Part shown: positions 9,461-33,901 of the stretch, piece by piece
Layout: each line of letters begins with the position of its first letter
How positions within the stretch are numbered: position 1 is the stretch's first letter
Origin: a virus
Lineage: Duplodnaviria; Heunggongvirae; Uroviricota; Caudoviricetes
DNA length: 35,535 bases
Direction: 5' to 3' (one strand)
IMG/VR virus record: IMGVR_UViG_2718218136_000003
Program-made: the position numbers and the translations under genes
Notes under the pieces: model-generated
Databases searched by the model: none
Told to the model about the DNA's origin: nothing
What the model saw: only the letters and a program-made list of their open reading frames with translations

Positions 9461-9463
9461 AGC

Positions 9464-10120: not shown

Positions 10121-10249
10121 TGAGCTGCATGCAAAAGGTGCATGTTTTTGCATGTGCTAAGTTCACTGGTTTTGTGTATATCGCTTCAGATCTAGCGTGG
10201 TTCCGGGGAGGGCATGCAACTGCATTAAAACCGCTCCATGAAGCGGGCG

Positions 10250-10268
10250 GGCGAGGCGGGGAAAGCAC
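10250..10268. other. cos site: 19-nt cohesive-end sequence GGCGAGGCGGGGAAAGCAC
   Basis: Exact string found about 170 bp beyond the Q stop codon, at the position of cos in P2; matches the P2 cohesive-end sequence as I recall it. Confidence 0.7.
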
Positions 10269-11472: not shown

Positions 11473-13244
11473 CAGTAAAACTCCAGAATGGTGGATGTCA
11501 GCGGGGTGCTGATACCGGCGGTGAGTGGCTCATTTAACAGAGCGTGCATGGTCGCCCAGGCGAGGTCGGCGTGGCTGGCTTCCTCGCTGCGGCTGGCCTC
11601 ATAGGTGGCGCTGCGTCCGCTGCTGGTCATGGTCTTGCGGATAGCCATAAACGAGCTGGTGATGTCGGTGGCGCTGACGTCATATTCCAGACAGCCTCGG
11701 CGGATAACGTCTTTTGCCTTGAGCACCATTGAGGTTTTCATTTCCGGCGTGTAGCGGATATCGCGCGCGGCGGGATAGAACGAGCGCACGAGCTGGAACA
11801 CGCCGACACCGAGGCCGGTGGCATCAATCCCGATGTATTCAACGTTATATTTTTCGGTGAGTTTGCGGATGGATTCCGCCTGGGTGGCAAAGTCCATGCC
11901 TTTCCACTGGTGACGCTCAAGTATTCTGAATTTGCCACCGGCCACCACCGGCGGTGCCAGCACCACGCATCCGGCGCTGTCGCCACGGTGTGACGGGTCG
12001 TAACCAATCCAGACCGGGCGGGAGCCGAACGGATTGGCGGCAAAGGGTGCATAGTCTTCCCATTCTTCCAGCGTGTCGACCATGCAGCGTTGCAGCTCCT
12101 CGAACGGGAACACCGATGCCTTGTCGTCAACAAATTCACACATGAACAGGTTTTTAAAATCGTCGGCGCTGTTTTCGCGTTTGAGCTGCTCAATGTCGAA
12201 CAGCGTGCAGCCGCCTTTCAGGGCGTCCTCAATGGTGACAATCTGCCGCCACTGGCCGTCCGCACAGAGAAGCCCACCGGCAAGGGCGTTATGACTGACG
12301 TCGATTTCCACGCGTTCGGCGGCGCTGGCGCGTCCCCGGTTGAACAGTTCACCCGACCAGAACGGGTAGGCGTCGTGCGCCAGCGTGGACGGGGTGGAGA
12401 AATAGGTCGAGCGCAGGTGACTCTGTGAGGCCATACCTGATGCCACCTTACGCAGTACCTGAAAATTCGGGATCCAGAAAATCTCGTCGACGTACAGGTC
12501 GCCGTTATGGCTCTGCGCGGTGTTGGAGTTGGTGCCGAGAAAAATCAGTTTTGCGCCGTTATTGCCCAGGACAATCGGGTCACCGGTCAGGTCAACGTCA
12601 ACCAGACGGGCAAAGGCGATGATGTATTCGCGGAACACATACGCCTGCGTTTTACTGGCCGACAGAAAAATCTGGTTATGACCGGTTTTCAGGGCGCGCA
12701 GCAGCGCCTCGCGGGAAAAATAAAACGTCGCGCCAATCTGACGGGATTTCAGGATATCGCGGATGCGGTGCTCAAGCCCGGCGCGATACCAGTGCAACTG
12801 ATAGTCGAAAGACTGCTCAAAGAAAATCTGCTCCAGCTTTTCGATGGCTTCGTCGCTGAAAAAATTCTTTTTCGGTTTGCGCCGCCCGCCTTTGTTGCGG
12901 TTAGCGACGTTCGGATTAAGGTCTGCCTCGTTGCCGGTCTGACTGTAACGGTTTACCCGTGCCAGTCGTTCAATCTGGCGTCCGAGCAGGTCAATTTCCT
13001 TGAAGTCACCGCCGGTTTTCTGCGGTTTGATGATGAGCTGGGTCAGCCGCGCTTCCAGACTCATTTCGACACGGCTGATGGGAGCAACGCTGTCCCAGCC
13101 GTCGCGCTGTTTCCAGCTCTGCACCGTCGGGCGTTTCATCTGCAACATGGCGGCAATCTGCGGCACGGAAAACCCCTGCCAGTACAGCAGCGCCGCCTGA
13201 CGACGCGGGTCGTGTAAAAGAGTGGTGTCTGTGGTGATGGTCAT
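11472..13244 (-). CDS. P: Terminase large subunit (ATPase) P, 590 aa
   Basis: ORF 11472-13274 trimmed to the second Met (MTITTDTTLL), giving the P2 P length; upstream of Q on the same strand. Confidence 0.88.
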   Translation of the reverse strand: MTITTDTTLLHDPRRQAALLYWQGFSVPQIAAMLQMKRPTVQSWKQRDGWDSVAPISRVEMSLEARLTQLIIKPQKTGGDFKEIDLLGRQIERLARVNRYSQTGNEADLNPNVANRNKGGRRKPKKNFFSDEAIEKLEQIFFEQSFDYQLHWYRAGLEHRIRDILKSRQIGATFYFSREALLRALKTGHNQIFLSASKTQAYVFREYIIAFARLVDVDLTGDPIVLGNNGAKLIFLGTNSNTAQSHNGDLYVDEIFWIPNFQVLRKVASGMASQSHLRSTYFSTPSTLAHDAYPFWSGELFNRGRASAAERVEIDVSHNALAGGLLCADGQWRQIVTIEDALKGGCTLFDIEQLKRENSADDFKNLFMCEFVDDKASVFPFEELQRCMVDTLEEWEDYAPFAANPFGSRPVWIGYDPSHRGDSAGCVVLAPPVVAGGKFRILERHQWKGMDFATQAESIRKLTEKYNVEYIGIDATGLGVGVFQLVRSFYPAARDIRYTPEMKTSMVLKAKDVIRRGCLEYDVSATDITSSFMAIRKTMTSSGRSATYEASRSEEASHADLAWATMHALLNEPLTAGISTPLTSTILEFY

Positions 13245-13417
13245 GAATACCTCGCCGTGATGAATACACGGCAAGGCTACTGAGTCGCGCCCCGCGATTC
13301 GCTAAGGTGCTGTTGTGCCAGTGATAAGCCATCCGGGACTGATGGCGGAGGATGCGCATCGTCGGGAAACTGATGCCGACATGTGACTCCTCTAATCACT
13401 ATTCAGGACTCCTGACA
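13245..13417. promoter_or_regulatory. Divergent late promoter region between P and O; contains TGTTGTGCCAGTGATAAGCCA (13311-13331), candidate Ogr-dependent upstream element
   Basis: Intergenic region between divergent late operons; TGTTGT motif also found upstream of V and FI. Confidence 0.45.
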
Positions 13418-14272
13418 ATGGCAAAAAAAGTCTCAAAATTCTTTCGTATCGGCGTTGAGGGTGACACCTGTGACGGGCGTGTCATCAGTGCGCAGGATAT
13501 TCAGGAAATGGCCGAAACCTTTGACCCGCGAGTCTATGGTTGCCGCATTAACCTGGAACATCTGCGCGGCATCCTGCCTGACGGTATTTTTAAGCGTTAT
13601 GGCGATGTGGTCGAACTGAAGGCCGAAAAGATTGACGATGATTCGGCGCTGAAAGGCAAATGGGCGCTGTTTGCGAAAATCACCCCGACCGATGACCTTA
13701 TCGCGATGAACAAGGCCGCGCAGAAGGTCTACACCTCAATGGAAATTCAGCCGAACTTTGCCAACACCGGCAAATGTTATCTGGTGGGGCTGGCCGTCAC
13801 CGATGACCCGGCAAGCCTCGGCACGGAATACCTGGAATTCTGCCGCACGGCAAAACACAACCCCCTGAACCGCTTCAAATTAAGCCCTGAAAACCTGATT
13901 TCAGTAGCAACGCCCGTTGAGCTGGAATTTGAAGACCTGCCAGAAACCGTGTTCACCGCCCTGACCGAAAAGGTGAAATCCATTTTTGGCCGCAAACAGG
14001 CCAGCGATGACGCCCGTCTGAATGACGTGCATGAAGCGGTGACCGCTGTTGCTGAACATGTGCAGGAAAAACTGAGCGCCACTGAGCAGCGCCTCGCTGA
14101 GATGGAAACTGCCTTTTCCGCTCTTAAGCAGGAGGTGACTGACAGGGCGGATGAAACCAGCCAGGCATTCACCCGCCTGAAAAACAGTCTCGACCACACC
14201 GAAAGTCTGACCCAGCAGCGCCGCAGCAAGGCCACCGGTGGTGGCGGTGATGCCCTGCTGACGAACTGCTGA
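13418..14272 (+). CDS. O: Capsid scaffolding protein O, 284 aa
   Basis: ORF 13352-14272 trimmed to ATG at 13418 (MAKKVSKFF…), giving the P2 O length; first gene of the rightward late operon. Confidence 0.88.
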   Translation: MAKKVSKFFRIGVEGDTCDGRVISAQDIQEMAETFDPRVYGCRINLEHLRGILPDGIFKRYGDVVELKAEKIDDDSALKGKWALFAKITPTDDLIAMNKAAQKVYTSMEIQPNFANTGKCYLVGLAVTDDPASLGTEYLEFCRTAKHNPLNRFKLSPENLISVATPVELEFEDLPETVFTALTEKVKSIFGRKQASDDARLNDVHEAVTAVAEHVQEKLSATEQRLAEMETAFSALKQEVTDRADETSQAFTRLKNSLDHTESLTQQRRSKATGGGGDALLTNC

Positions 14273-14330
14273 CCGGCGTCAGTCAGTCCGGGAAAACCTT
14301 CACGATTAACCCTTAATTTCAGGAAAAACT

Positions 14331-15404
14331 ATGCGCCAGGAAACCCGCTTTAAATTTAATGCCTACCTGTCCCGTGTTGCCGAACTGAACGGCATCGACG
14401 CCGGTGATGTGTCGAAAAAATTCACCGTTGAACCGTCGGTCACCCAGACCCTGATGAACACCATGCAGGAGTCCTCTGACTTTCTGACCCGCATCAACAT
14501 TGTGCCGGTCAGCGAAATGAAAGGGGAAAAAATTGGCATCGGTGTCACCGGCTCCATTGCCAGCACCACCGACACCGCCGGTGGCACCGAGCGTCAGCCG
14601 AAGGACTTCTCGAAGCTGGCGTCCAACAAGTACGAATGCGACCAGATTAACTTCGATTTTTATATCCGCTACAAAACGCTTGACCTGTGGGCGCGTTATC
14701 AGGATTTCCAGCTCCGTGTCCGTAACGCCATTATCAAACGCCAGTCCCTTGATTTCATCATGGCCGGTTTTAACGGCGTGAAGCGTGCCGAAACCTCTGA
14801 CCGCAGCAGCAATCCGATGCTGCAGGATGTGGCGGTCGGCTGGCTGCAGAAATACCGCAATGAAGCCCCGGCGCGCGTGATGAGTAAGGTCACTGACGAG
14901 GAAGGCCGCACCACCTCTGAGGTTATCCGCGTGGGTAAGGGCGGTGATTATGTCAGCCTTGATGCACTGGTGATGGATGCGACCAACAACCTGATTGAGC
15001 CGTGGTATCAGGAAGACCCCGACCTTGTGGTGATTGTGGGGCGTCAGTTACTGGCGGACAAGTATTTCCCCATCGTTAACAAGGAGCAGGACAACAGCGA
15101 AATGCTGGCCGCTGACGTCATCATCAGCCAGAAACGCATCGGTAACCTGCCGGCGGTACGCGTCCCGTACTTCCCGGCGGATGCGATGCTCATCACGAAG
15201 CTGGAAAACCTGTCCATCTACTACATGGATGACAGCCATCGCCGCGTGATTGTGGAAAACCCGAAACTCGACCGCGTGGAGAACTACGAGTCAATGAACA
15301 TTGATTACGTGGTGGAAGACTACGCCGCCGGTTGTCTGGTGGAAAAAATTAAGGTCGGTGATTTCTCCACACCGGCTAAAGCGACCGCAGAGCCGGGAGC
15401 GTAA
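14331..15404 (+). CDS. N: Major capsid protein N, 357 aa
   Basis: 357-aa ORF, same length and position as P2 N. Confidence 0.9.
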   Translation: MRQETRFKFNAYLSRVAELNGIDAGDVSKKFTVEPSVTQTLMNTMQESSDFLTRINIVPVSEMKGEKIGIGVTGSIASTTDTAGGTERQPKDFSKLASNKYECDQINFDFYIRYKTLDLWARYQDFQLRVRNAIIKRQSLDFIMAGFNGVKRAETSDRSSNPMLQDVAVGWLQKYRNEAPARVMSKVTDEEGRTTSEVIRVGKGGDYVSLDALVMDATNNLIEPWYQEDPDLVVIVGRQLLADKYFPIVNKEQDNSEMLAADVIISQKRIGNLPAVRVPYFPADAMLITKLENLSIYYMDDSHRRVIVENPKLDRVENYESMNIDYVVEDYAAGCLVEKIKVGDFSTPAKATAEPGA

Positions 15405-15407
15405 CCG

Positions 15408-16145
15408 ATGACGAGTCCCGCACAGCGCCACATGATGCGGGTCTCGGCAGCGATAACCGCGCAGCGGGAAGCCGCCCCGCTGCGACATGCAACTGTCTAT
15501 GAGCAGATGCTGGTTAAGCTCGCCGCAGACCAGCGCACACTGAAAGCGATTTATTCAAAAGAGCTGAAGGCCGCAAAAAAACGCGAACTGCTGCCGTTCT
15601 GGTTGCCGTGGGTGAACGGCGTGCTGGAGCAGGGCAAAGGCGCACAGGATGACATTCTGATGACAGTCATGCTGTGGCGTCTGGATACCGGCGATATTGC
15701 CGGTGCGCTGGAGATTGCCCGTTATGCCCTGAAGTACGGTCTGACCATGCCGGGTAAACACCGCCGCACCCCGCCGTACATGTTCACCGAGGAGGTGGCG
15801 CTCGCGGCCATGCGTGCTCACGCTGCCGGTGAGTCTGTGGATACCCGCCTGCTGACGGAGACCCTTGAACTGACCGCCACGGCTGATATGCCTGATGAAG
15901 TGCGCGCAAAGCTGCACAAAATCACAGGTCTGTTTCTGCGTGATGGTGGTGATGCCGCCGGTGCGCTGGCTCACCTGCAACGTGCGACACAGCTCGACTG
16001 TCAGGCAGGTGTCAAAAAAGAGATTGAACGACTGGAGCGGGAGCTGAAACCGGAGCCGCAGCCCAAAGCGGCCACCCGTACCCCGCGTAAGACCCGGAGC
16101 GTGACACCGGCAAAACGTGGACGCCCGAAAAAGAAAGCCAGTTAA
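15408..16145 (+). CDS. M: Terminase small subunit / endonuclease M, 245 aa
   Basis: ORF following N; size close to P2 M; basic Lys/Arg-rich C-terminus. Confidence 0.85.
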   Translation: MTSPAQRHMMRVSAAITAQREAAPLRHATVYEQMLVKLAADQRTLKAIYSKELKAAKKRELLPFWLPWVNGVLEQGKGAQDDILMTVMLWRLDTGDIAGALEIARYALKYGLTMPGKHRRTPPYMFTEEVALAAMRAHAAGESVDTRLLTETLELTATADMPDEVRAKLHKITGLFLRDGGDAAGALAHLQRATQLDCQAGVKKEIERLERELKPEPQPKAATRTPRKTRSVTPAKRGRPKKKAS

Positions 16146-16244
16146 CAACCGAATGCGCCCCGCGCCAGGGCGGCACGCCGGTCAGTGAGGGTGAATCACC
16201 TGACGCTGCACCGGCGTCCACCGCCCGACTTTTCAGAGGTAGTC

Positions 16245-16754
16245 ATGATGACGCTGATTATTCCGCGAAAGGAGGCTCCCGTGTCCGGTGAGGGTACGGT
16301 GGTCATCCCGCAACCGGCAGGCGACGAGCCGGTGATTAAAAACACGTTCTTTTTTCCCGATATCGACCCGAAGCGCGTCCGGGAACGTATGCGCCTTGAG
16401 CAGACCGTCGCCCCCGCCCGTCTGCGTGAGGCCATCAAGTCAGGCATGGCGGAGACGAATGCGGAGCTGTACGAGTACCGCGAACAGAAAATTGCCGCCG
16501 GTTTTACGCGTCTGGCGGACGTTCCGGCGGACGACATCGACGGTGAAAGCATCAAAGTTTTTTACTACGAGCGCGCCGTGTGTGCGATGGCGACCGCGTC
16601 GCTTTATGAGCGTTATCGCGGCGTGGATGCCAGTGCGAAAGGCGACAAGAAGGCTGACAGCATTGACAGCACCATTGATGAGCTGTGGCGGGATATGCGC
16701 TGGGCAGTGGCGCGAATCCAGGACAAGCCGCGCTGCATCGTGAGTCAAATCTGA
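16245..16754 (+). CDS. L: Head completion protein L, 169 aa
   Basis: ORF 16185-16754 trimmed to ATG at 16245 preceded by AGAGG; P2 L length. Confidence 0.85.
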   Translation: MMTLIIPRKEAPVSGEGTVVIPQPAGDEPVIKNTFFFPDIDPKRVRERMRLEQTVAPARLREAIKSGMAETNAELYEYREQKIAAGFTRLADVPADDIDGESIKVFYYERAVCAMATASLYERYRGVDASAKGDKKADSIDSTIDELWRDMRWAVARIQDKPRCIVSQI

Positions 16755-16957
16755 TGAAGACCTTTGCGCTACAGGGCGACACGCTCGACGCCATTTGTGT
16801 CCGGTATTACGGGCGCACTGAGGGCGTGGTCGAAGCCGTGCTCGCCGCAAATCCGGGACTGGCTGAACTGGGTGTGGTGCTGCCGCACGGCACCGCCGTC
16901 GAACTGCCCGACGTTCAGACCGCGCCCGTGGCTGAAACTGTCAATCTGTGGGAGTAA
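16754..16957 (+). CDS. X: Tail protein X (LysM-like), 67 aa
   Basis: ORF 16685-16957 trimmed to ATG at 16754 overlapping the L stop (ATGA); MKTFALQGDTLDAICVRYYG… as in P2 X. Confidence 0.85.
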   Translation: MKTFALQGDTLDAICVRYYGRTEGVVEAVLAANPGLAELGVVLPHGTAVELPDVQTAPVAETVNLWE

Positions 16958-16960
16958 CGC

Positions 16961-17242
16961 ATGACAGCAGAAGAAAAAAGCGTCCTGTCGCTTTTCATGA
17001 TTGGGGTGCTGATTGTTGTCGGCAAGGTGCTTGCCGGTGGTGAACCCATCACCCCGCGTCTGTTTATCGGGCGCATGTTGCTCGGTGGTTTTGTCTCGAT
17101 GGTTGCCGGTGTTGTTCTGGTGCAGTTTCCTGACCTGTCACTGCCTGCGGTGTGCGGCATTGGCTCCATGCTGGGTATCGCCGGTTATCAGGTGATTGAG
17201 ATTGCCATTCAGCGCCGCTTTAAGGGCAGGGGGAAACAGTAA
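16961..17242 (+). CDS. Y: Holin Y, 93 aa
   Basis: 93-aa ORF with hydrophobic helices, first gene of the lysis cassette, P2 Y length. Confidence 0.85.
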   Translation: MTAEEKSVLSLFMIGVLIVVGKVLAGGEPITPRLFIGRMLLGGFVSMVAGVVLVQFPDLSLPAVCGIGSMLGIAGYQVIEIAIQRRFKGRGKQ

Positions 17243-17739
17243 TGCCGGTAATTAACACGCATCAGAATATCGCCGCCTTTCTCGACATGCTGGCCGTGTC
17301 CGAAGGGACGGCAAATCATCCGCTGACGAAAAACCGGGGCTATGACGTGATAGTCACCGGACTGGACGGGAAGCCGGAAATCTTCACCGACTACAGCGAC
17401 CACCCGTTCGCGCATGGCCGACCGGCGAAGGTGTTTAACCGTCGCGGTGAAAAATCCACGGCCTCCGGTCGCTATCAGCAGCTTTACCTGTTCTGGCCGC
17501 ATTACCGCAAACAGCTTGCCCTGCCGGATTTCAGTCCGCTGTCACAGGACAGACTTGCCATTCAGTTGATCCGCGAACGCGGTGCACTGGATGACATCCG
17601 GGCGGGATGCATTGAGCGCGCCATTTCACGCTGTCGCAATATCTGGGCGTCCCTGCCGGGTGCCGGTTACGGTCAGCGTGAGCATTCACTGGAAAAACTG
17701 GTCACCGTCTGGCGTACCGCTGGCGGCGTACCGGCTTAA
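17242..17739 (+). CDS. K: Endolysin K, 165 aa
   Basis: 165-aa ORF after the holin, P2 K length. Confidence 0.85.
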   Translation: MPVINTHQNIAAFLDMLAVSEGTANHPLTKNRGYDVIVTGLDGKPEIFTDYSDHPFAHGRPAKVFNRRGEKSTASGRYQQLYLFWPHYRKQLALPDFSPLSQDRLAIQLIRERGALDDIRAGCIERAISRCRNIWASLPGAGYGQREHSLEKLVTVWRTAGGVPA

Positions 17740-17753
17740 ACGGAGTAAACACC

Positions 17754-18179
17754 ATGAAGAAATTATCCCTTTCACTGATGCTGAACGTGTCGCTGGCGCT
17801 GATGCTGGCACTGTCCCTGATTTACCCGCAGAGCGGGGGCGTCAATTTTGTCGCTGCCTGGGCGATTCTGGCGACGGCTATCTGTGTGGTTGCCGGTGGT
17901 GTCGGCGTGTATGCCACTGAGTATGTACTGGAACGCTACGGGCGGGAGCTGCCGCCGGAATCGCTGGCCGTGAAGATTGTCACGTCGCTGTTTTTGCAGC
18001 CGATGCCGTGGCGCAGACGGGCAGTAGCTCTGGTGGTGATGGTGGCGACATTTATCTCGCTGGTTGCTGCCGGGTGGATTTTTACCGCGCTGATTTATCT
18101 TGTGGCGTCGCTGTTTTTCCGGCTGATACGTACGGCCTGCCGCCAGCGTCTTGAGGGGCGGGAACCATGTCAAAGCTGA
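17754..18179 (+). CDS. lysA: Lysis-timing membrane protein LysA, 141 aa
   Basis: 141-aa ORF with multiple hydrophobic helices after K. Confidence 0.8.
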   Translation: MKKLSLSLMLNVSLALMLALSLIYPQSGGVNFVAAWAILATAICVVAGGVGVYATEYVLERYGRELPPESLAVKIVTSLFLQPMPWRRRAVALVVMVATFISLVAAGWIFTALIYLVASLFFRLIRTACRQRLEGREPCQS

Positions 18180-18592
18180 TGATTGTGCTGGTCGTGTTGT
18201 TATCGCTGGCGGTGTCCTGTCTGTTTCTGGAGAAACACAAAAATGCCAGCCTGCGCGCCTCGCTGGACAGGGCGAACAACGTCGCCAGTGAACAGCAGAC
18301 GACCATCACCGTGCTGAAAAAGCAGCTTCATGTTGCCATCACCAGGGCAGACAAAAACGAGCTGGCGCAGGTGGCACTGCGTCAGGAACTGGAGAACGCC
18401 GCGAAGCGTGAAGCACAGCGCGAGAAAACCATCACGAGGTTACTCAATGAAAACGAAGATTTTCGCCGCTGGTACGGTGCTGACCTGCCTGATGCTGTGC
18501 GCCGGTTGCACCAGCGCCCCGCCTGCACCGACGCCAGTGATTGTCCACAACGCCTGCCCGAAAGTGAGCCTTTGCCCGATGCCGGGCAGTGA
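18167..18592 (+). CDS. lysB: Spanin inner-membrane subunit LysB (Rz-like), 141 aa
   Basis: N-terminal TM helix plus charged coiled-coil region; P2 LysB length. Confidence 0.85.
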   Translation: MSKLMIVLVVLLSLAVSCLFLEKHKNASLRASLDRANNVASEQQTTITVLKKQLHVAITRADKNELAQVALRQELENAAKREAQREKTITRLLNENEDFRRWYGADLPDAVRRLHQRPACTDASDCPQRLPESEPLPDAGQ

Positions 18593-18737
18593 CCCGGAGA
18601 CGAACGGCGATTTAAGTGCCGATATCCGGCAGCTTGAGAACGCGCTGGCACGTTGTGCCAGCCAGGTAAAAATGATTAAACACTGTCAGGACGAAAACGA
18701 TGCTCAAACCCGACAGCCTGCGCAGGGCGCTGACTGA
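18447..18737 (+). CDS. lysC: Spanin outer-membrane lipoprotein LysC (Rz1-like), 96 aa, starting inside lysB in the +1 frame
   Basis: ORF 18330-18737 trimmed to ATG at 18447; lipoprotein signal MKTKIFAAGTVLTCLMLCAGC; Pro-rich mature region; overlaps the 3' part of lysB and the start of R. Confidence 0.8.
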   Translation: MKTKIFAAGTVLTCLMLCAGCTSAPPAPTPVIVHNACPKVSLCPMPGSDPETNGDLSADIRQLENALARCASQVKMIKHCQDENDAQTRQPAQGAD

Positions 18738-19167
18738 TGCCGTCACGGTGCTGAAAACTAACCCCGATATGCTGCGGATATTCGTGGATAACGGGAGAAT
18801 TGCCTCCACACTGGCGGCGTCGTTGTCATTCGAAAAGCGTTACACGCTCAATGTCATTGTGACCGACTTTACCGGTGATTTTGACCTGCTCATCGTGCCG
18901 GTGCTGGCGTGGCTGCGGGAAAATCAGCCCGACATCATGACCACCGACGAAGGTCAGAAAAAGGGCTTCACGTTTTATGCAGACATCAACAATGACAGCA
19001 GCTTTGATATCAGCATCAGCCTGATGCTGACCGAGCGCACGCTGGTCAGTGAGGTGGACGGCGCACTACATGTGAAGAATATCCCGGAACCCCCGCCGCC
19101 GGAGCCGGTCACCCGCCCGATGGAGCTGTATATCAATGGCGAACTGGTGAGCAAGTGGGATGAATGA
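18700..19167 (+). CDS. R: Tail completion protein R, 155 aa
   Basis: 155-aa ORF, P2 R length and position. Confidence 0.85.
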   Translation: MLKPDSLRRALTDAVTVLKTNPDMLRIFVDNGRIASTLAASLSFEKRYTLNVIVTDFTGDFDLLIVPVLAWLRENQPDIMTTDEGQKKGFTFYADINNDSSFDISISLMLTERTLVSEVDGALHVKNIPEPPPPEPVTRPMELYINGELVSKWDE

Positions 19168-19612
19168 GTTTAAGCGTTTTGAAGACCGGCTGACCGGACT
19201 GATTGAGTCGCTGTCACCGTCAGGGCGTCGGCGACTGAGCGCCGAACTGGCGAAACGTCTGCGGCAGAGTCAGCAGCGTCGGGTGATGGCACAGAAAGCC
19301 CCGGATGGCACACCCTATGCGCCACGCCAGCAGCAGAGCGCCAGAAAAAAGACCGGTCGTGTTAAGCGAAAAATGTTTGCGAAACTTATCACCAGTCGTT
19401 TTTTGCATATCCGCGCCAGCCCTGAACAGGCATCAATGGAGTTTTACGGCGGGAAGTCACCGAAAATCGCCAGCGTGCATCAGTTCGGTCTGTCGGAAGA
19501 AACCAGGAAAGACGGTAAGAAAATTGATTATCCGGCGCGTCCTCTGCTCGGCTTTACCGGTGAGGATGTGCAGATGATTGAAGAGATTATCCTGGCTCAC
19601 CTTGAGCGTTAG
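19160..19612 (+). CDS. S: Tail completion protein S, 150 aa
   Basis: 150-aa ORF, P2 S length and position. Confidence 0.85.
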   Translation: MNEFKRFEDRLTGLIESLSPSGRRRLSAELAKRLRQSQQRRVMAQKAPDGTPYAPRQQQSARKKTGRVKRKMFAKLITSRFLHIRASPEQASMEFYGGKSPKIASVHQFGLSEETRKDGKKIDYPARPLLGFTGEDVQMIEEIILAHLER

Positions 19613-19642
19613 TTTTATCCAGGCAGAGGCTGATGCGCAATT

Positions 19643-19678
19643 AAACATTGAGCGGCCATGCTGGTCGCTCAATGTTTA
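19643..19678. terminator. Perfect 12-bp inverted repeat (AAACATTGAGCG / CGCTCAATGTTT) with 12-nt loop between convergent S and the orf30-slot gene; candidate bidirectional terminator
   Basis: Inverted repeat read from sequence in the 71-bp gap between convergent genes. Confidence 0.55.
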
Positions 19679-19683
19679 GAGGT

Positions 19684-20469
19684 TTATGAGTGATTTTTAT
19701 TTGATGCTTTGTATTCTACAACCTTCTTATTGGCGTAAAGGAATTTTGTATATGACAGGAATATAACCAGACCTGAAATGAAATAGATGAGGGATGTTAT
19801 TAATAATGCTTTTTTTTGGCTGTTATTATCTTTAATCTCCTGACTTAACCATTCGGAGTCCTCCTCGTTTAGCTGTAAGAGCTTATTGCAGGCGATCTCA
19901 GGAAGTGTGTCTTTTATAAATACGTTTCGTAGCCTCTTGCAATCGGCAAGGCTATAAGTTTTATTGAATTCAACTGTTTTATTGTTGAAGGATAAAAGAA
20001 CTTTGTCACTATAAACATAGTACATCATATTTTTATATGGTATGCCTATGGCATCTCTTACTATAGCGGATTGTTTGTTGTGTATATAACATGCGAAGAG
20101 AATATAAATAATACTGGACAGAATTACAATTATTGTTTTAATTATGTGTGGTGGTTTTGTTATGTCACCCCAGAAGCGAGTAAGAAAAAAATACGATGTT
20201 TTTAGTTTTCCATCAATCAGCCCCTGCTGTATCATTCTCACATCTTCGATGCCTGATACATTGATTCCGTTAATTATTTTAAATAGTTGAATGTCGCGCC
20301 ATTTTTTGTCGAGCATTTTTAACTTTCTGTCTGAATACTCAAAATTGAAATGATGTGCAATAAACCTCATAAGATTACTTTTACCAAAGGTAATAAATGT
20401 TAATGCTATTAATAAAAATAGATACAAAGAGATAAACCACCACGCATTAGTCACATTATCACTGAACAT
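19684..20469 (-). CDS. Uncharacterised AT-rich integral membrane protein, 261 aa (P2 orf30 slot)
   Basis: Opposite strand to flanking tail genes; three strongly hydrophobic segments (WWFISLYLFLLIALTFITF, IIKTIIVILSSIIYILFACYI, ALLITSLIYFISGLVIFLSY); GAGGAGAG Shine-Dalgarno before ATG; Lys/Asn/Ile-rich composition. Confidence 0.6.
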   Translation of the reverse strand: MFSDNVTNAWWFISLYLFLLIALTFITFGKSNLMRFIAHHFNFEYSDRKLKMLDKKWRDIQLFKIINGINVSGIEDVRMIQQGLIDGKLKTSYFFLTRFWGDITKPPHIIKTIIVILSSIIYILFACYIHNKQSAIVRDAIGIPYKNMMYYVYSDKVLLSFNNKTVEFNKTYSLADCKRLRNVFIKDTLPEIACNKLLQLNEEDSEWLSQEIKDNNSQKKALLITSLIYFISGLVIFLSYTKFLYANKKVVEYKASNKNHS

Positions 20470-20552
20470 TACGCTCTCCTCGAATGTTGTATGGTCGTTC
20501 TACAAATGAATCCAGATAGCATAACTTTTATATATTGTGCAATCTCACACGC

Positions 20553-21188
20553 ATGAACACTCTCGCAAATATTCAGGAACTCGCGCGCGCACTGCGCAAC
20601 ATGATTCGTACCGGCCTTGTCGTCGAAACCAACCTTAAAGCCGGTCGCTGCCGTGTGCAGACCGGTGGCATGTGCACTGACTGGCTTCAGTGGCTGACCC
20701 ATCGTGCCGGACGTTCGCGCACATGGTGGGCACCTTCCGTGGGGGAACAGGTGCTGATTCTGGCTGTGGGCGGTGAACTCGACACGGCGTTCGTTCTGCC
20801 GGGGATTTATTCCGGCGATAACCCCGCGCCGTCTGCGTCGGCGGATGCCCTGCATATCCGTTTCCCTGACGGGGCGGTGATTGAGTATGAACCCGAAACC
20901 AGTGCACTCACGGTAAGCGGAATTAAAACGGTCAGCGTGACGGCTTCTGATTCTGTTACCGCCACGGTGCCGGTGGTCATGGTGAAAGCGTCAACCCGCA
21001 TCACCCTGGACACACCGGAGGTGGTCTGCACCAACAGGCTGATTACCGGCACGCTGGAAGTACAGAAGGGCGGGACGATGCGCGGCAACATTGAACACAC
21101 CGGCGGTGAACTCTCATCAAACGGTAAGGTACTGCATACCCATAAACACCCCGGCGACAGCGGCGGCACAACCGGGGGACCTCTATGA
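20553..21188 (+). CDS. V: Baseplate spike / hub protein V, 211 aa
   Basis: ORF 20535-21188 trimmed to MNTLANIQEL, giving the P2 V length. Confidence 0.85.
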   Translation: MNTLANIQELARALRNMIRTGLVVETNLKAGRCRVQTGGMCTDWLQWLTHRAGRSRTWWAPSVGEQVLILAVGGELDTAFVLPGIYSGDNPAPSASADALHIRFPDGAVIEYEPETSALTVSGIKTVSVTASDSVTATVPVVMVKASTRITLDTPEVVCTNRLITGTLEVQKGGTMRGNIEHTGGELSSNGKVLHTHKHPGDSGGTTGGPL

Positions 21189-21532
21189 CAGCGCGTTATC
21201 TCGGAATGAATCGCAGTGATGGCCTGACTGTCACTGACCTTGAGCATATCAGCCAGAGTATCGGCGATATCCTGCGCACACCGGTCGGCTCGCGGGTGAT
21301 GCGTCGTGATTACGGCTCGTTGCTGGCGTCAATGATTGACCAGCCGCAGACTCCGGCGCTTGAGTTGCAGATTAAGGTCGCCTGTTACATGGCAGTGCTG
21401 AAATGGGAACCCCGCGTCACCCTGTCATCCGTCACCACTGAGCGCAGTTTTGACGGGCGAATGACGGTCACGTTAACCGGCCAGCACAACGACACCGGCC
21501 AGCCACTTTCATTAACCATCCCTGTGAGTTGA
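21185..21532 (+). CDS. W: Baseplate protein W (gp25-like), 115 aa
   Basis: 115-aa ORF with ATGA overlap to V. Confidence 0.85.
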   Translation: MTARYLGMNRSDGLTVTDLEHISQSIGDILRTPVGSRVMRRDYGSLLASMIDQPQTPALELQIKVACYMAVLKWEPRVTLSSVTTERSFDGRMTVTLTGQHNDTGQPLSLTIPVS

Positions 21533-21536
21533 AACC

Positions 21537-22445
21537 ATGCCGATTATCGACCTGAACCAGCTACCCGCACCGGATGTGGTCGAGGAGCTGGACTTTGAAA
21601 CCATTCTCGCTGAACGCAAGGCGACACTGATTTCTCTTTACCCGGAAGACCAGCAGGAGGCGGTCGCCCGTACCCTGACACTGGAATCCGAGCCTCTCGT
21701 CAAACTGCTGGAGGAAAATGCTTATCGTGAGCTTATCTGGCGTCAGCGTGTGAATGAGGCCGCACGGGCGGTGATGCTGGCCTGTGCCGCCGGTAATGAC
21801 CTTGATGTGATTGGTGCCAATTACAACACCACGCGCCTGATTATTACTCCGGCAGATGATTCGACCATCCCGCCGACACCGGCAGTGATGGAATCTGACA
21901 CGGATTATCGTCTGCGTATTCAGCAGGCGTTTGAAGGCTTAAGCGTCGCCGGGTCGGTGGGAGCCTATCAGTATCATGGTCGCAGTGCCGACGGGCGTGT
22001 CGCGGATATCTCTGTCACCAGTCCGTCTCCGGCCTGCGTCACCATCTCCGTGCTGTCACGTGAAAATAACGGTGTGGCATCCGAAGATCTGCTGGCGGCG
22101 GTGCGTAACGCCCTTAATGGCGAGGACGTCAGGCCGGTGGCCGACCGCGTGACCGTGCAGTCTGCCGCCATTGTTGAATACCAGATAAACGCCACGCTTT
22201 ACCTTTACCCTGGTCCCGAAAGCGAACCCATCCGCGCTGCCGCCGTGAAAAAACTGGAAGCGTATATCACGGCACAGCACCGGCTGGGGCGTGACATCCG
22301 TCTGTCTGCCATTTATGCCGCTTTGCATGTGGAAGGTGTGCAGCGTGTCGAACTGGCTGCACCACTGGCCGACATCGTGCTCAACAGTACGCAGGCGTCT
22401 TTCTGTACTGAATACCGCGTCGTGACCGGAGGCTCGGATGAGTGA
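21537..22445 (+). CDS. J: Baseplate wedge protein J, 302 aa
   Basis: 302-aa ORF, P2 J length and position. Confidence 0.85.
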   Translation: MPIIDLNQLPAPDVVEELDFETILAERKATLISLYPEDQQEAVARTLTLESEPLVKLLEENAYRELIWRQRVNEAARAVMLACAAGNDLDVIGANYNTTRLIITPADDSTIPPTPAVMESDTDYRLRIQQAFEGLSVAGSVGAYQYHGRSADGRVADISVTSPSPACVTISVLSRENNGVASEDLLAAVRNALNGEDVRPVADRVTVQSAAIVEYQINATLYLYPGPESEPIRAAAVKKLEAYITAQHRLGRDIRLSAIYAALHVEGVQRVELAAPLADIVLNSTQASFCTEYRVVTGGSDE

Positions 22446-22968
22446 TTCGCGACTGCTGCCGACCGGCTCATCACCGCTTGAGGTCGCCGCCGCAAAAGCC
22501 TGTGCGGAAATTGAAAAAACGCCGGTCAGTATTCGTGAGCTGTGGAACCCGGATACCTGTCCGGCAAATTTGCTGCCGTGGCTGGCGTGGGCGTTTTCGG
22601 TCGACAGGTGGGATGAGAAGTGGCCGGAAGCGACAAAACGCGCCGTTATCCGCGATGCGTATTTCATCCACTGTCATAAAGGCACTATAGGTGCAATCCG
22701 GCGTGTGGTGGAGCCGCTCGGCTATCTCATCAACGTGACGGAGTGGTGGGAAAACAGTGACCCGCCCGGCACCTTCCGGCTTGATATTGGTGTACTGGAA
22801 AGTGGCATCACAGAGGCAATGTATCAGGAAATGGAACGGCTGATTGCTGATGCCAAACCTGCAAGCCGTCACCTTATTGGCCTGAACATTACCCGGGACA
22901 TTCCCGGCTACCTGTTCGCCGGTGGTGTGGCTTACGACGGCGATGTAATTACGGTTTACCCCGGATAA
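22438..22968 (+). CDS. I: Baseplate protein I, 176 aa
   Basis: 176-aa ORF, P2 I length and position. Confidence 0.85.
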   Translation: MSDSRLLPTGSSPLEVAAAKACAEIEKTPVSIRELWNPDTCPANLLPWLAWAFSVDRWDEKWPEATKRAVIRDAYFIHCHKGTIGAIRRVVEPLGYLINVTEWWENSDPPGTFRLDIGVLESGITEAMYQEMERLIADAKPASRHLIGLNITRDIPGYLFAGGVAYDGDVITVYPG

Positions 22969-22978
22969 GTGAGGAATA

Positions 22979-25297
22979 ATGAGCACAAAATTCAAAACCG
23001 TTATCACCACTGCCGGTGCAGCAAAGCTGGCAGCGGCAACCGCGCCGGGAGGGCGGAAGGTCAACATTACCACGATGGCCGTCGGGGATGGCGGTGGTAA
23101 ATTGCCTGTCCCGGATGCCGGACAGACCGGGCTTATCCATGAAGTCTGGCGACATGCGCTGAACAAAATCAGCCAGGACAAACGAAACAGTAATTATATT
23201 ATCGCAGAGCTGGTTATTCCGCCGGAGGTGGGCGGTTTCTGGATGCGTGAGCTTGGCCTGTACGATGATGCGGGAACGTTAATTGCCGTGGCGAACATGG
23301 CCGAAAGTTATAAGCCAGCCCTTGCCGAAGGCTCAGGACGTTCGCAGACCTGCCGCATGGTCATTATCGTCAGCAGTGTGGCCTCAGTGGATCTGACCAT
23401 CGACACCACAACGGTGATGGCGACGCAGGATTACGTTGATGACAAAATTGCAGAGCACGAACAGTCACGACGTCACCCGGACGCCTCGCTGACCGCAAAA
23501 GGTTTTACTCAGTTAAGCAATGCGACCAACAGCACGTCTGAAACACTGGCCGCAACGCCGAAAGCGGTTAAGGCCGCATATGACCTTGCTAACGGGAAAT
23601 ATACCGCACAGGACGCTACCACAGCGCGAAAAGGTCTTGTCCAGCTAAGTAGTGCGACCAACAGCATGTCTGAAACGCTCGCCGCAACACCAAAAGCGGT
23701 TAAGGCAGCGTATGACCTTGCTAACGGGAAATACACTGCACAGGACGCCACCACAGCGCGAAAAGGTCTTGTCCAGCTCAGTAGCGTCACCAACAGCGAT
23801 TCTGAAACGCTTGCGGCAACGCCAAAGGCGGTTAAGACAGCGTATGACCTTGCTAACGGGAAATACACTGCACAGGATGCCACCACCGCGCGAAAAGGTC
23901 TTGTCCAGCTCAGTAGCGCCACCAACAGCGATTCTGAAACGCTGGCTGCAACATCAAAAGCGGTGAAGTCTGCCTATGACAATGCTGAAAAACGTCTTCA
24001 GAAAGATCAGAACGGTGCGGATATTCCGGGAAAGGATACCTTCACGAAAAATATCGGTGCCTGTCGTGCTTATAGCGGCGCTTTGAGCACTGAAGCCGGA
24101 AACTGGACAACCGCTCAGTTTATTGAATGGCTGGATTCCCGTGGTGCATTTAATCATCCGTACTGGATGTGCAAAGGCTCCTGGTCATATGCAAATAACA
24201 AAATCATTACGGATACCGGATGTGGTGATATCCACCTGGCTGGTTGTGTCGTCGAGGTCATGGGAACTAAATCTGCAATCACTATCCGAGTGACCACGCC
24301 GACAACATCAAGCGGTGGCGGTACAACCAGCGCGCAATTCACTTACATAAATCATGGGGACGGCTACTCCCCCGGCTGGCGTCGTGACTGGAATCGTCAG
24401 GGCGACGCAATGACCGGAACGATTAATCAGGATGGCGGAAGCCAGAATGCCTATATGTCTACGGCCTTATGTTCAGGCACCAGAGGCGGCAAAAAATATC
24501 TCAGAAAGTTTCGTGGTGGAGAAGGAGACACTATCTGGCATGAAACAGTACAGGGCGGGGTAGTTCGCTGGGCGACTGGTAATACTGATGCTCAGGAAGA
24601 ATTATCACTCAGCTCCGCTTATGGTCTCCGTTCAAGAGGTGAGATTACATCAAGCAGTGCTAATGGTCTGCGCATTGCTTATGGCAATTATGGATTCTTT
24701 ATCAGGAATGATGGCAGCAGCACTTATTTTATGTTGACTAAATCAGGTGACAGATTAGGCACTTATAATAATTTAAGACCACTGATTATAAATGATGCCA
24801 CGGGTGCTGTATCAATGGGGCATGGCCTGAGTGTTACAGGTGATATTGTCTCAAGTACCAAAGTACGTGCCGGTAGCGGGAAAAAGTTCACGGTCAGCAG
24901 CAGCAATACATCCACGAAGGAAGCCGCATTCAATTTGTGGGGAAACTCAAGTCGTCCTGTGGTGGCTGAATTAGGTGATGATGCAGGCTGGCATTTTTAC
25001 AGTCAGAGAAATACAGATAACAGCATCACTTTTGCTGTTAACGGGCAGGTATCACCATCTAACTATGGAAACTTTGATTCACGCTATGTCCGGGATATCC
25101 GGCTTGGTGGTGCTGCCACATACAAACCTGCGAACAATGGTATGACATGGACACATCAGGCACCGTCCGGGTGTGTATATTCCGGCATTATTGTTCAGGA
25201 TACCGGCTCAAACTCTGCCGATAACATTGGTGGCGTATATTACAGACCGGTGCAGAAATACATTAACGGGACTTGGTATAACGTGGCGCAGGTATAA
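22979..25297 (+). CDS. H: Tail fibre protein H, 772 aa, with an internal tandem repeat array
   Basis: Long ORF after the baseplate genes; conserved N-terminus; central 44-aa repeats; Gly/Ser-rich C-terminal region. Confidence 0.88.
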   Translation: MSTKFKTVITTAGAAKLAAATAPGGRKVNITTMAVGDGGGKLPVPDAGQTGLIHEVWRHALNKISQDKRNSNYIIAELVIPPEVGGFWMRELGLYDDAGTLIAVANMAESYKPALAEGSGRSQTCRMVIIVSSVASVDLTIDTTTVMATQDYVDDKIAEHEQSRRHPDASLTAKGFTQLSNATNSTSETLAATPKAVKAAYDLANGKYTAQDATTARKGLVQLSSATNSMSETLAATPKAVKAAYDLANGKYTAQDATTARKGLVQLSSVTNSDSETLAATPKAVKTAYDLANGKYTAQDATTARKGLVQLSSATNSDSETLAATSKAVKSAYDNAEKRLQKDQNGADIPGKDTFTKNIGACRAYSGALSTEAGNWTTAQFIEWLDSRGAFNHPYWMCKGSWSYANNKIITDTGCGDIHLAGCVVEVMGTKSAITIRVTTPTTSSGGGTTSAQFTYINHGDGYSPGWRRDWNRQGDAMTGTINQDGGSQNAYMSTALCSGTRGGKKYLRKFRGGEGDTIWHETVQGGVVRWATGNTDAQEELSLSSAYGLRSRGEITSSSANGLRIAYGNYGFFIRNDGSSTYFMLTKSGDRLGTYNNLRPLIINDATGAVSMGHGLSVTGDIVSSTKVRAGSGKKFTVSSSNTSTKEAAFNLWGNSSRPVVAELGDDAGWHFYSQRNTDNSITFAVNGQVSPSNYGNFDSRYVRDIRLGGAATYKPANNGMTWTHQAPSGCVYSGIIVQDTGSNSADNIGGVYYRPVQKYINGTWYNVAQV
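23498..23980 (+). repeat. About 3.7 tandem copies of a 132-bp (44-codon) in-frame repeat inside H (KGLVQLSSATNSxSETLAATPKAVKAAYDLANGKYTAQDATTAR)
   Basis: Unit starts at 23498, 23630, 23762 and 23894; near-identical at nucleotide level; also produces mirror ORFs on the opposite strand. Confidence 0.9.
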
Positions 25298-25300
25298 TTT

Positions 25301-25828
25301 ATGCAGCATTTGATAAATATAACGGCAGGTAATCCAAAAACGGTTGAACAATATCAATTGACAAAAGACTTTGATGTTGTCTGGTTTTTTTCAGAAGATG
25401 GTAAGAACTGGTACGAAGAACAAAAGTATTTTGCTGATGACACGCTAAAAATAGCGTACGACAAAGATAATATCATCCGCTATGTGGAAAAGGATGTGAC
25501 AGCTATCAGACCGGATGGATTAAGTGTGGTTGAAGTGGCGGATATTACTGCTAACCGACGGGCGGACATTTCAGGGGACTGGATGTTTAAGGGCGGCAAA
25601 GTGATTAAACGCATTTATACGGCAGAGGAATTGCAGCAGCAGGCAGAAAACCGGAAAGCCAGACTTCTTGCAGATGCTGAATCCGTGATTTTGCCGCTGG
25701 AGCGCGCTGTCAGGCTGAATATGGCTACAGAGGAGGAGCGCACACGACTGGAAGCATGGGAACGCTACAGCGTTCTGGTCAGTCGTGTGGATCCTGCAAA
25801 TCCTGAATGGCCGGAAATGCCGCAATAA
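25301..25828 (+). CDS. G: Tail fibre assembly chaperone G, 175 aa
   Basis: 175-aa ORF immediately after H, P2 G length. Confidence 0.85.
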
Positions 25829-25862
25829 GTTGTATGAGCTCTGGTGTGAGCTTACATATCTA

Positions 25863-25905
25863 TGGCACAGAGTAAAGACTAATCTGACAGTCCGCTCTGT
25901 GCCAA
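25863..25905. terminator. 10-bp inverted repeat (GGCACAGAGT / ACTCTGTGCC-like) with long loop after G; candidate stem-loop or terminator
   Basis: GGCACAGAG at 25864-25872 pairs with CTCTGTGCC at 25896-25904; no strong U-tract. Confidence 0.35.
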
Positions 25906-26032
25906 AAACGGACATGTCAAAGCGCAGAGTGAATGGCTAAGTCTAGCTCATTAGAAATGTTCGCTTCATGAAAATGGCTGCAGCAAGGATCTATCTCACT
26001 GCGGCCTCTTTACAATAACGAAATTTTGCGAG

Positions 26033-26788
26033 CTATTCCTTGGCCTCTTTATTTTTCTCGCCATCGCCAATGTAAAGAAGATAATCGTTTAAGGATATCC
26101 TTCCGGAGGGGCCGGTCCATGTTATCAATCCGTTCTCACGAAGATTAAATAATGCTTCCATGAACTCATTATCGTTAAAAGAATGATCCTCTGAGAACAG
26201 AATGTTCATTTTTCTCAATAGTTCTTCCACTTTAATCTTTTCATATCGCCTTATCAGACTTAGTGCTTTACGACGCATTAAGATTGTAGGTACTGCTTGT
26301 GAACGAATGGTTTTTTGTATTCCACTATCAAGAACTTTCTTGATCTTGCTCTCTAACTCTTTGATTTTAGTTTCATTATCTCCATTGGACTTAAGCTTTT
26401 CATCAACGATGCAAATAATTTCCTGACTAATGCTGTTCTTGAGGTTGTTTATTTTTTCTTCATTGTTGAGAATCTCATCAGAGCTTCCTGCATGGGGTTT
26501 TTTCCATATGTGCTGACGCATATCCGTTACCGTATCTCTCATCATAGAGAATGTATCTGAATATAACTTGTCAAATATTTTTTCCAGTCGTTCGACACTT
26601 GCCTGGATGTCTTTTGCTGCTTTAGTTGTCTCTTTAGAAGCCTCATTCGACATTTTATAAAAAACAAAAGAAAGCCAAATAGCCCCAATGGCGAGTACTA
26701 ATGAGGCTATTGTGGCAATAAAACCTATTATTGTTATTGCTGTATCTAATGTGCCTGCTGCATCTGTGACTACTGTTTCTGCTGCCAT
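26033..26788 (-). CDS. Uncharacterised AT-rich membrane-anchored coiled-coil protein, 251 aa (P2 Z/fun slot)
   Basis: Opposite strand to the tail genes; N-terminal hydrophobic helix (ITIIGFIATIASLVLAIGAIWLSFVFY) followed by a Lys/Glu-rich region; GAGGAT Shine-Dalgarno before ATG at 26788. Confidence 0.6.
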   Translation of the reverse strand: MAAETVVTDAAGTLDTAITIIGFIATIASLVLAIGAIWLSFVFYKMSNEASKETTKAAKDIQASVERLEKIFDKLYSDTFSMMRDTVTDMRQHIWKKPHAGSSDEILNNEEKINNLKNSISQEIICIVDEKLKSNGDNETKIKELESKIKKVLDSGIQKTIRSQAVPTILMRRKALSLIRRYEKIKVEELLRKMNILFSEDHSFNDNEFMEALFNLRENGLITWTGPSGRISLNDYLLYIGDGEKNKEAKE

Positions 26789-27179
26789 ATATCCTCAATA
26801 TTTAACCATACAGGGTAGCGTGTTTTAACCGCGGGGAAGTCGGGGTGGTGACACCCTAGCCTTACCCCGATTCCAGAGTATTTATTTATCATACCATTGA
26901 AACTATTTAATTTTATCGAAAATTTTGTCAGAGCGTGACTGAAAAGTCTTCAGCACGTCAAGCATATCGTCGCCGTTCAATTAACACTGAGCCTTTTCTT
27001 AGAGGGGTGGGCTGCGCAGTTGCGAGGTTATGCCCCAGTTCCTAGTTCCTCACTACATTCTAATTAAGCCGGCCAACTAAATGTCCGCTTTTCGCTCAAA
27101 GCAGACTGTCAGATTTGATAGCGTTTGGGCTATGTAAATTGTCAGTTGGAAAATGAGTGAGTGCAAATCATGGCAGGCT

Positions 27180-27298
27180 GGCGGATTACCCGCCTTTTCT
27201 TTGTCTGTTGTTTCATCCCCTGACCAGCCAGGTCAAATAGCGTCTCATGCTCTGCACAACAGAAAATAGTTGCACCCATTAACCACGGAGTTAAACGG
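27180..27298 (+). promoter_or_regulatory. Late promoter region for the FI-FII-E-T-U-D operon; contains TGTTGT motif at 27208-27213
   Basis: Position upstream of FI; motif shared with regions upstream of O and V. Confidence 0.45.
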
Positions 27299-33682: not shown

Positions 33683-33901
33683 ATGTTTCATTGTCCTTTA
33701 TGCCAGCATGCCGCACATGCGCGTACAAGCCGCTATATCACTGACACGACAAAAGAGCGTTATCACCAGTGCCAGAACGTGAATTGCAGCGCCACGTTCA
33801 TCACCTATGAGTCGGTACAGCGATACATCGTGAAGCCGGGAGAAGTCCACGCCGTAAGGCCGCACCCGTTGCCGTCAGGGCAGCAAATTATGTGGATGTA
33901 A
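33683..33901 (+). CDS. ogr: Late-gene transcriptional activator Ogr (zinc finger), 72 aa
   Basis: ORF 33608-33901 trimmed to MFHCPLCQHAAHARTSRYITDTTKERYHQCQNVNCSATF…, the C4 zinc-finger protein of P2 as I recall it; last gene before attR. Confidence 0.9.
   Translation: MFHCPLCQHAAHARTSRYITDTTKERYHQCQNVNCSATFITYESVQRYIVKPGEVHAVRPHPLPSGQQIMWM

Follow-up and report, generated by a model that had tools for sequence, protein, structure and literature searches.

TGTTGT motifs upstream of the late operons of a P2-type prophage as probable half-sites for the Ogr activator

We believe, with very little doubt, that the three copies of TGTTGT lying upstream of the late operons O, V and FI are the promoter-distal halves of Ogr binding sites at late promoters. 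The DNA analysed here, which we call the window, is the whole 35,535-nucleotide stretch of the IMG/VR virus record IMGVR_UViG_2718218136_000003. The observation is real and it is already known; the motif is a textbook element of a P2-type prophage. The value of the finding lies in correct annotation and exact coordinates for the regulatory sites, and little beyond that.

The window as a whole reads as an ordinary P2-type prophage. It is flanked by yegS-like and yegQ-like host genes, and the region between P and O has 99.6% identity with many Peduovirus genomes. O, V, FI and P were identified by tblastn and with the help of the P2 annotation. An Ogr-family zinc-finger activator is encoded on the same element as the late promoters (coordinates of all features are in the table), and its sequence shows the CX2CX22CX4C motif. 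The prophage keeps all four predicted Ogr-dependent late promoters as well as an intact ogr, so a P4-type satellite can probably still induce it, or it can probably grow lytically.

The mechanism we propose leans on the P2 literature and annotation, as does anything we say about Ogr binding, the contact with polymerase and the start points in this prophage. The trigger would be Ogr, a small C4 zinc-finger protein made once replication begins, or else P4 Delta from a satellite. Each late promoter would lack a usable -35 element; centred some 55-57 bp before its start it would have an inverted repeat, imperfect but of the TGT-N12-ACA type. The activator on this repeat would touch RNA polymerase at the C-terminal domain of alpha, and that contact would recruit sigma-70 polymerase to PP, PO, PV and PF. 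A single site between P and O would drive both of the divergent promoters. Ogr is described as binding inverted repeats centred near -55 and as requiring contact with the alpha subunit (PMC3152322), and the four late promoters of P2 are described as carrying TGT-N12-ACA (PMC3931495, which cites Christie & Calendar 1985 and Julien & Calendar 1995 for the P2 late promoters and the Ogr-Delta sites).

Table. Coordinates in the window of the TGTTGT copies, the predicted activator sites and related features
Feature	Position	Strand	Basis or remark
TGTTGT copy 1 (PO/PP)	13311..13316	+	within mapped P2 activator site
TGTTGT copy 2 (PV)	20485..20490	+	motif search
TGTTGT copy 3 (PF)	27206..27211	+	motif search
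Ogr binding site (predicted), common to divergent PO and PP	13308..13338	.	P2 AF063097 feature 3057-3087
O operon transcription start (putative)	13378	+	transferred from P2 position 3127
P-Q operon transcription start (putative)	13267	-	transferred from P2 position 3016
PV activator binding site (predicted)	20484..20511	+	P2 feature 10239-10266
V start codon, also V-operon transcription start in P2 annotation (leaderless mRNA)	20553	+	P2 feature 10308
PF activator binding site (predicted)	27202..27230	+	P2 feature 17555-17583, by alignment
F operon transcription start (putative)	27273..27275	+	transferred from P2 positions 17626-17628
orf30 allele, divergent from V, 261 aa	19684..20469	-	85% aa identity to P2 Orf30
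ogr, cognate zinc-finger late activator	33683..33901	+	72/72 aa same as P2 Ogr

The argument begins with where the motifs lie. The preliminary description had placed them 68-107 bp upstream of the first codons of three late operons, and this agrees with the distances we measure: 107 bp for O (start codon at 13418), 68 bp for V (20553) and 93 bp for FI (27299). Two of its positions stand, and the third, given as 27208, is really 2 nt lower at 27206. Its list of late operons is right as far as it goes; it is missing a fourth, divergent late promoter, PP, which faces P on the other strand. The sites lie directly before O, V and FI, and before P on that strand.

Each copy of TGTTGT sits inside one activator binding site annotated in P2 (AF063097). 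The idea that the motifs belong to an Ogr-dependent partial dyad near -55 is borne out by this placement and by their distance from the annotated starts. P2 has the same four promoters at the same genes and positions, with an activator that is 100% identical. The P2 feature between P and O is labelled 'activator binding site; pO, pP promoters', and the alignment there is free of gaps with 1 mismatch in the site; the stretch from the site to the ATG of O is the same as in P2, and the putative P-Q and O starts are 111 bp apart. At PV the alignment with P2 has 97% identity, no gaps and 2 mismatches in the site. A partial dyad near -55 is found in each, and the P2 reference sites are imperfect dyads like those of the window. 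PF is the one that has diverged. In the segment 27206-27275, with the site at one end and the -10 region at the other, the window differs from P2 and carries an allele identical in type to that of phage Wphi. The window has TGTTGT where P2 has GGTTGT, and the window copy lies 1 nt nearer to the start. Between the putative F start and the ATG, all 26 nt match the P2 sequence.

The right half-sites are degenerate (CCA, CAA and CCA), and this accounts for the lack of a perfect dyad. The preliminary description could not confirm a perfect TGT-N12-ACA, and our exact search of the window likewise gives 6 matches against 9 expected, with 0 at the late promoters. The dyads are TGT(13314-16)-N12-CCA(13329-31) at PO/PP and TGT(27209-11)-N12-CCA(27224-26) at PF, each an inverted repeat matching TGT-N12-ACA at 5/6 positions. 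PV can be read as TGT(20488-90)-N12-CAA, which matches at 4/6, or equally as TGT-N11-ACA, which matches at 6/6, with the centre at -56.5 to -57; another reading is a 5-bp inverted repeat, TTGTA(20487-91)-N9-TACAA(20501-05). With starts transferred from the P2 annotation in AF063097 by sequence identity, the second TGT of each hexamer begins at -64 (PO), -65 (PV) and -65 (PF), and the dyad centres fall at -55.5 for PO, -55.5 for PP on the other strand, and -56.5 for both PV and PF. This centring is about 55 bp upstream of the start. A sigma-70 consensus scan of 13230-13430, 20380-20620 and 27100-27310 found no promoter, as expected for activator-dependent promoters, although this is a weak test since only 0.2-0.7 would be expected by chance.

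Further evidence comes from relatives. We compared nine genomes, the window plus eight others including P2, from at least six genera. A TGT is present at equal spacing before the start codons of O, V and FI in all eight of the other P2-family genomes, sometimes with unrelated flanks. It lies at -65 +/- 2 from the ATG of V in 9/9 and at -90 +/- 3 from the ATG of FI in 9/9, and the regions upstream of V are mostly unrelated in sequence among these genomes. None of the nine has a Shine-Dalgarno sequence before V. In the PF regions GTTGT is kept in 8/9, and the final A of the right half-site (27226 in the window) is invariant among the genomes compared. At its first position the hexamer is variable, with T/G/T/A/C/T/C/G across eight PF regions. 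The conserved half-site is confined to the 3' portion, (G)TTGT, and the TG with which the hexamer opens is no conserved part of the element.

Phage 186 (U32222) gives a comparison outside P2. Its B-dependent promoters p12/pV and pJ include a TGTTGT...CCA between the divergent terminase and scaffold genes that is homologous to PO/PP of the window, and an AGTTGT-N12-CCA 90 nt before the sheath gene. The 186 activator is a homologous C4 zinc-finger protein, and the sites we predict overlap the activator sites annotated in both reference phages (P2 features, and the protein_bind feature for 'B protein' in 186). The spacers differ between 186 and the window, the leader of the 186 O homologue is 8 nt shorter, and 186 is without the orf30 module. 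A motif comparison with P4 finds perfect TGT-N12-ACA at Psid and PLL, which are activated by Delta or Ogr (P4 9493-9510, 9531-9548 and 9133-9150). Psid has a second copy of the repeat near the start, preceded by TGTTGTTGT. The repeats of P4 are perfect, whereas those of the window are imperfect and single.

It is important to realize how little the hexamer says without its position. One could argue that it is a coincidence with no sequence-specific role and that activation works through other features of these regions. TGTTGT is not enriched in the window (15 copies against 20.8 +/- 4.7 expected). It is the sole hexamer common to the three 120-nt upstream regions, but some shared hexamer also turns up when the sequences are shuffled (7.6% of trials) or when triples are drawn at random (18%). 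Its first T is variable, and PF of P2 does without TGTTGT altogether. From the window alone, then, the shared hexamer could have arisen by chance. What goes beyond chance is the position of the TGT, not the hexamer itself. Coincidence does not account for a position fixed at -64/-65 in three promoters, for the overlap with annotated sites in two independently studied phages, or for a TGT kept at the same distance in non-homologous regions upstream of V in seven lineages, and we regard it as very improbable. Mutation of the TGT in PF of P2 and Psid of P4 reportedly abolishes Ogr-dependent activation, in work attributed to Grambow in 1990 and Van Bokkelen in 1991. P2 also has several other DNA-binding regulators, which is the sole reason to weigh whether the motif is an operator for the C repressor, Cox, integrase or IHF rather than for Ogr; we found no support for this. 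The P2 record puts the C operators and the Cox, Int and IHF sites at attP and the Pe/Pc region (P2 24293-25923) and none at the late promoters, where the sites are explicitly labelled as activator sites. An operator of this kind seems to us even less credible than coincidence, and Ogr half-sites remain our reading.

The element itself is hard to recognise. The relaxed pattern TTGT-N12-[AC][AC]A has 11 matches on the + strand of the window, of which 3 are at promoters, and is not specific alone. We also scanned the window with a weight matrix trained on 11 sites in diverged relatives, one of them (ST512_O) 1 nt out of register. PO ranks first at 26.3 bits, aided by homology. PF is second at 14.9 bits, no more than the best scores in shuffled sequence can reach (mean 13.0, maximum 17.5); PV is outside the top 15 in the window. 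The outcome for PF and PV means that the element is so degenerate that it can be recognised only in its positional context, and we dropped the matrix as a discriminating test. The reverse complement of the hexamer, ACAACA, occurs at 27256-27261, 50 bp beyond the PF copy on its downstream side. We weighed whether the two could form a long-range dyad and decided against it, since neither P2 nor Wphi conserves this ACAACA.

The remaining question concerns orf30. The preliminary description put the PV copy at the 5' end of a cargo gene and suggested coupling between cargo and late transcription. The placement is correct: the copy is 16 bp from the ATG of orf30 (20469, minus strand) and 3 bp from its GAGGAG. 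The gene, whose GC content is 32%, is by its similarity to P2 an allele of the orf30 that P2 itself carries. Coupling is possible, for example as interference between overlapping divergent promoters. One version would give the PV copy a second role, in which Ogr and polymerase at PV switch off or modulate orf30 at late onset; this would add to the Ogr-site explanation without replacing it. The predicted PV site begins 15 bp from the ATG of orf30, and the ribosome-binding site (GAGGAG, 20474-81) abuts it, so the promoter or 5' leader of orf30 must overlap both the site and the core of PV. The gap between orf30 and V is only 83 bp (20470-20552), and the two promoters must therefore overlap. P2-like phages without orf30 align with the window solely from the ATG of V onward (63/83 records), which means that the orf30 module carries its own allele of PV as a unit. 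Against this, we could detect no sigma-70-like promoter for orf30 on either strand, and a manual check of the minus strand gave weak hexamers only. If Ogr at the PV site also drove transcription in mirror image, the start would lie 28 nt into orf30, which excludes shared bidirectional activation of the kind proposed for PP and PO. The gene is annotated in P2 merely as non-essential, and Pfam and PADLOC searches of the cargo proteins, orf30 included, found no family. We consider a second role for the PV copy unlikely. A more specific picture, with the cassette bringing a private late promoter for V and the Ogr site acting as a two-way switch (orf30 on in the prophage and occluded when Ogr fires the leaderless V transcript), is somewhat less likely again. 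If it were true, exchange of cargo at the orf30 slot would also swap the regulation of baseplate gene expression.

The prophage has three variable cargo slots. At the orf30 slot the exchanged segment includes the adjoining late promoter. The Z slot excludes its late promoter; the inverted repeats there (25881-25915 and 27081-27115) stop some 90 bp short of the PF site.

The window is an integrated prophage, since its flanks encode a YegS-like kinase and a YegQ-like U32 peptidase (Table), an interval we take to be the locus of the ogrK/yegZ P2 remnant in E. coli K-12. Its gene order is that of P2, and across the P/O intergenic region (13200-13460) the window shares 99.6% identity with dozens of Peduovirus (P2-like) genomes. 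Its Ogr, the late activator, is identical to that of P2 (72/72 aa) and carries the zinc motif CX2CX22CX4C. The product of the tail-fibre gene H (22979-25297) is 772 aa long and those of P2 and Wphi are 669 aa, which indicates a different receptor-binding part.

Features of the prophage and its flanks, with late activator sites and transcription starts taken from P2 record AF063097
Feature	Window position	Strand	Details
YegS-like lipid kinase	1-900		left flank (segment 1-1632), domain hit
int	1897-2910	-	then C, cox, B, A
variable region			after A, then cos
tin/old-slot ORF 1	8625-9380	+	251 aa, 39% GC
tin/old-slot ORF 2	9449-10120	+	223 aa, 35% GC
Q/P		-	after cos, then O through S
PO/PP site	13308-13338		P2 3057-3087, starts 3127 (O), 3016 (P); TGTTGT-GCCAGTGATAA-GCCA = TGT-N12-CCA
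orf30 allele	19684-20469	-	between S and V; 261 aa, 85% identity to P2 orf30, equal length
PV site	20484-20511		P2 10239-10266, start 10308; TGTTGT-ATGGTCGTTCT-ACAA = TGT-N12-CAA
V through G, variable region, FI through D, ogr			P2 order
Z/fun-slot cargo	26033-26788	-	251 aa, 37% GC
PF site	27202-27230		P2 17555-17583, start 17626-17628; TGTTGT-TTCATCCCCTG-ACCA = TGT-N12-CCA
YegQ-like U32 peptidase	34174-35535		right flank, domain hit

The preliminary description reported TGTTGT 68-107 bp upstream of the first codons of O, V and FI. The plus-strand copies lie at 13311, 20485 and 27206, so two of its coordinates are exact and the third, 27208, was 2 nt off; the distances to the start codons (O 13418, V 20553, FI 27299) are 107, 68 and 93 bp, as claimed. 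TGTTGT is the single hexamer common to all three 120-nt upstream regions. It shows no enrichment (15 copies counting both strands, 20.8 +/- 4.7 expected), and some common hexamer appears in 7.6% of shuffles and 18% of random window triples. The pattern is real, yet from the window alone it is not clearly beyond chance. The reverse complement, ACAACA, occurs at 27256-27261, roughly -18 to -13 relative to PF and 50 bp away from its TGTTGT; this copy is probably a chance occurrence because P2 and Wphi lack it at that place.

P2 record AF063097 annotates activator sites and transcription starts for PO/PP, PV and PF. The PO/PP and PV regions align to P2 gap-free and PF is identical over the 26 nt from start to ATG, therefore the activator sites can be placed in the window as tabulated. 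Each has a single TGTTGT, placed at the left end. The PO/PP site differs from P2 at 1 nt and the PV site at 2 nt; the PF site is another allele, TGTTGT where P2 has GGTTGT, and Wphi shares it. The consensus TGT is the second within the hexamer. It starts at -64 (PO), -65 (PV) and -65 (PF), and the repeats centre on -55.5, -56.5 and -56.5, counted from starts transferred from P2. The earlier proposal of an Ogr dyad near -55 thus agrees with the annotated sites. Two other readings fit PV: a perfect TGT-N11-ACA, and TTGTA-N9-TACAA. The four P2 late promoters are described as Ogr-dependent with TGT-N12-ACA (PMC3931495); a search found no perfect copy at any late promoter of the window, just as the preliminary description could confirm none. 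The comparison it suggested with P2 and P4 bears it out: the P2 activator sites coincide, and in P4 perfect TGT-N12-ACA repeats occur both ahead of sid and within the PLL region.

Counted from the P start on the minus strand, the PO site has its centre at -55.5, and the two divergent starts are separated by 111 bp. PP and PO therefore share a single site, and the P2 and 186 records annotate the same arrangement. PP is the promoter of a fourth late operon, absent from the original list.

Inverted repeats centred near -55 are the binding sites of Ogr, which also needs contact with the RNA polymerase alpha subunit (PMC3152322). By analogy Ogr would bind the partial dyad here, contact alpha and drive PP, PO, PV and PF. 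The sites were observed directly in position, sequence and conservation, as was the activator gene; exact starts, binding and alpha contact in this prophage are carried over from P2. A consensus scan of the three late-promoter regions found no sigma-70 promoter, which fits activator dependence of PO, PV and PF. The main interpretation is correct; the Ogr element itself has long been known in the P2 family and is annotated in reference genomes.

Nine genomes were compared: the window, P2, Wphi, 186, Klebsiella Kp4852-2, Salmonella FSL SP-004, Erwinia ENT90, Yersinia vB_YenM_201.16 and Klebsiella ST512-KPC3phi13.2, with O, V and FI located in the eight relatives by tblastn. All nine have a TGT at -65 +/- 2 of the V ATG and at -90 +/- 3 of the FI ATG. 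At O, eight of the nine have it at -104/-103 or -96; the ninth, ENT90, carries TGTs at -107 and at -101. The fixed position at V is striking because the regions upstream of V are mostly not alignable. The PF alignment has GTTGT in 8/9, and the base before it varies (T, G, T, A, C, T, C, G); the right half ends in A (27226) in every genome. The conserved unit is therefore (G)TTGT, frequently with GCCA after it, together with a degenerate [A/C][C/A]A at 12 nt distance. On these alignments the hexamer is this core with a non-conserved extension. Phage 186 has TGTTGT...CCA at its annotated site for B, its counterpart activator. The PF segment from site to -10 (27206-27275) is far more diverged from P2 than its near-identical flanks, which suggests that two PF alleles circulate among Peduoviruses, the window having the Wphi type.

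P2-like phages have three recognised variable regions, and the orf30 locus is one of them (PMC3091744). The allele here is 32% GC, with no Pfam or PADLOC family found. The PV site begins at a distance of 3 bp from the Shine-Dalgarno sequence of orf30. Activation of both genes from one site, as at PP/PO, is excluded at PV because the mirror-image Ogr-dependent start, at about 20441, would fall 28 nt inside orf30. Any promoter or leader of orf30 has to overlap the Ogr site and the core of PV, which makes interference plausible; a sigma-70 scan identified no orf30 promoter. Of 83 matching phage records, 63 resemble the window only from the V ATG on, therefore the orf30 module includes its own PV allele. 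Orf30-less P2-like phages (Wphi, L-413C and many others) match only from that ATG onward. Comparing window 20470-20553 with 9369-9435 of one such relative, L005, the PV versions are unrelated, with the half-site at -65 in both. The orf30-less PV has a conserved GC hairpin (for example gccgccgg-tatgac-ccggcggc) and then CATCCTT (L005 ~9395-9425; also upstream of V in L006 and L009), between activator site and V ATG, within the core promoter, and this hairpin may also act as the O-operon terminator. The P2 record places the transcription start of the V operon at the A of the V start codon (window 20553). None of the nine genomes has a Shine-Dalgarno sequence before V, which together with the TGT at 65 +/- 2 nt suggests a leaderless V mRNA conserved across the family.

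The Z/fun slot is bounded by 35-nt inverted repeats (25881-25915 and 27081-27115, 86% complementary), and the P2-EC67 Z-region record (AJ512685) annotates the same kind of left/right inverted repeat. The right repeat ends about 90 bp before the PF site, unlike the orf30 slot, which has PV inside. A terminator-like GC hairpin, GGCGGATTACCCGCC TTTTCTTTGT (27180-27194), with a T-run to 27204 ends 2-3 nt before the PF TGTTGT and probably insulates PF from cargo read-through. P2, 186, FSL SP-004 and ST512phi13.2 have a similar hairpin and T-run ahead of the PF site. For the Z-slot protein there is neither a Pfam match above curated cut-offs (three weak ones below) nor a PADLOC family; Peduovirus P22H4 and Escherichia phage 9W encode a 'hypothetical protein' 99.6% identical to it. 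Its gene is a candidate for lysogenic conversion or defence. The two tin/old-slot ORFs are AT-rich, and neither has a Pfam or PADLOC family. Escherichia phage S164 matches that whole segment at 99.9% identity, and P22H4 annotates the first half of it as 'Orf97'; according to the 186 record, plasmid-borne expression of the orf97 of 186 blocks infection by that phage.
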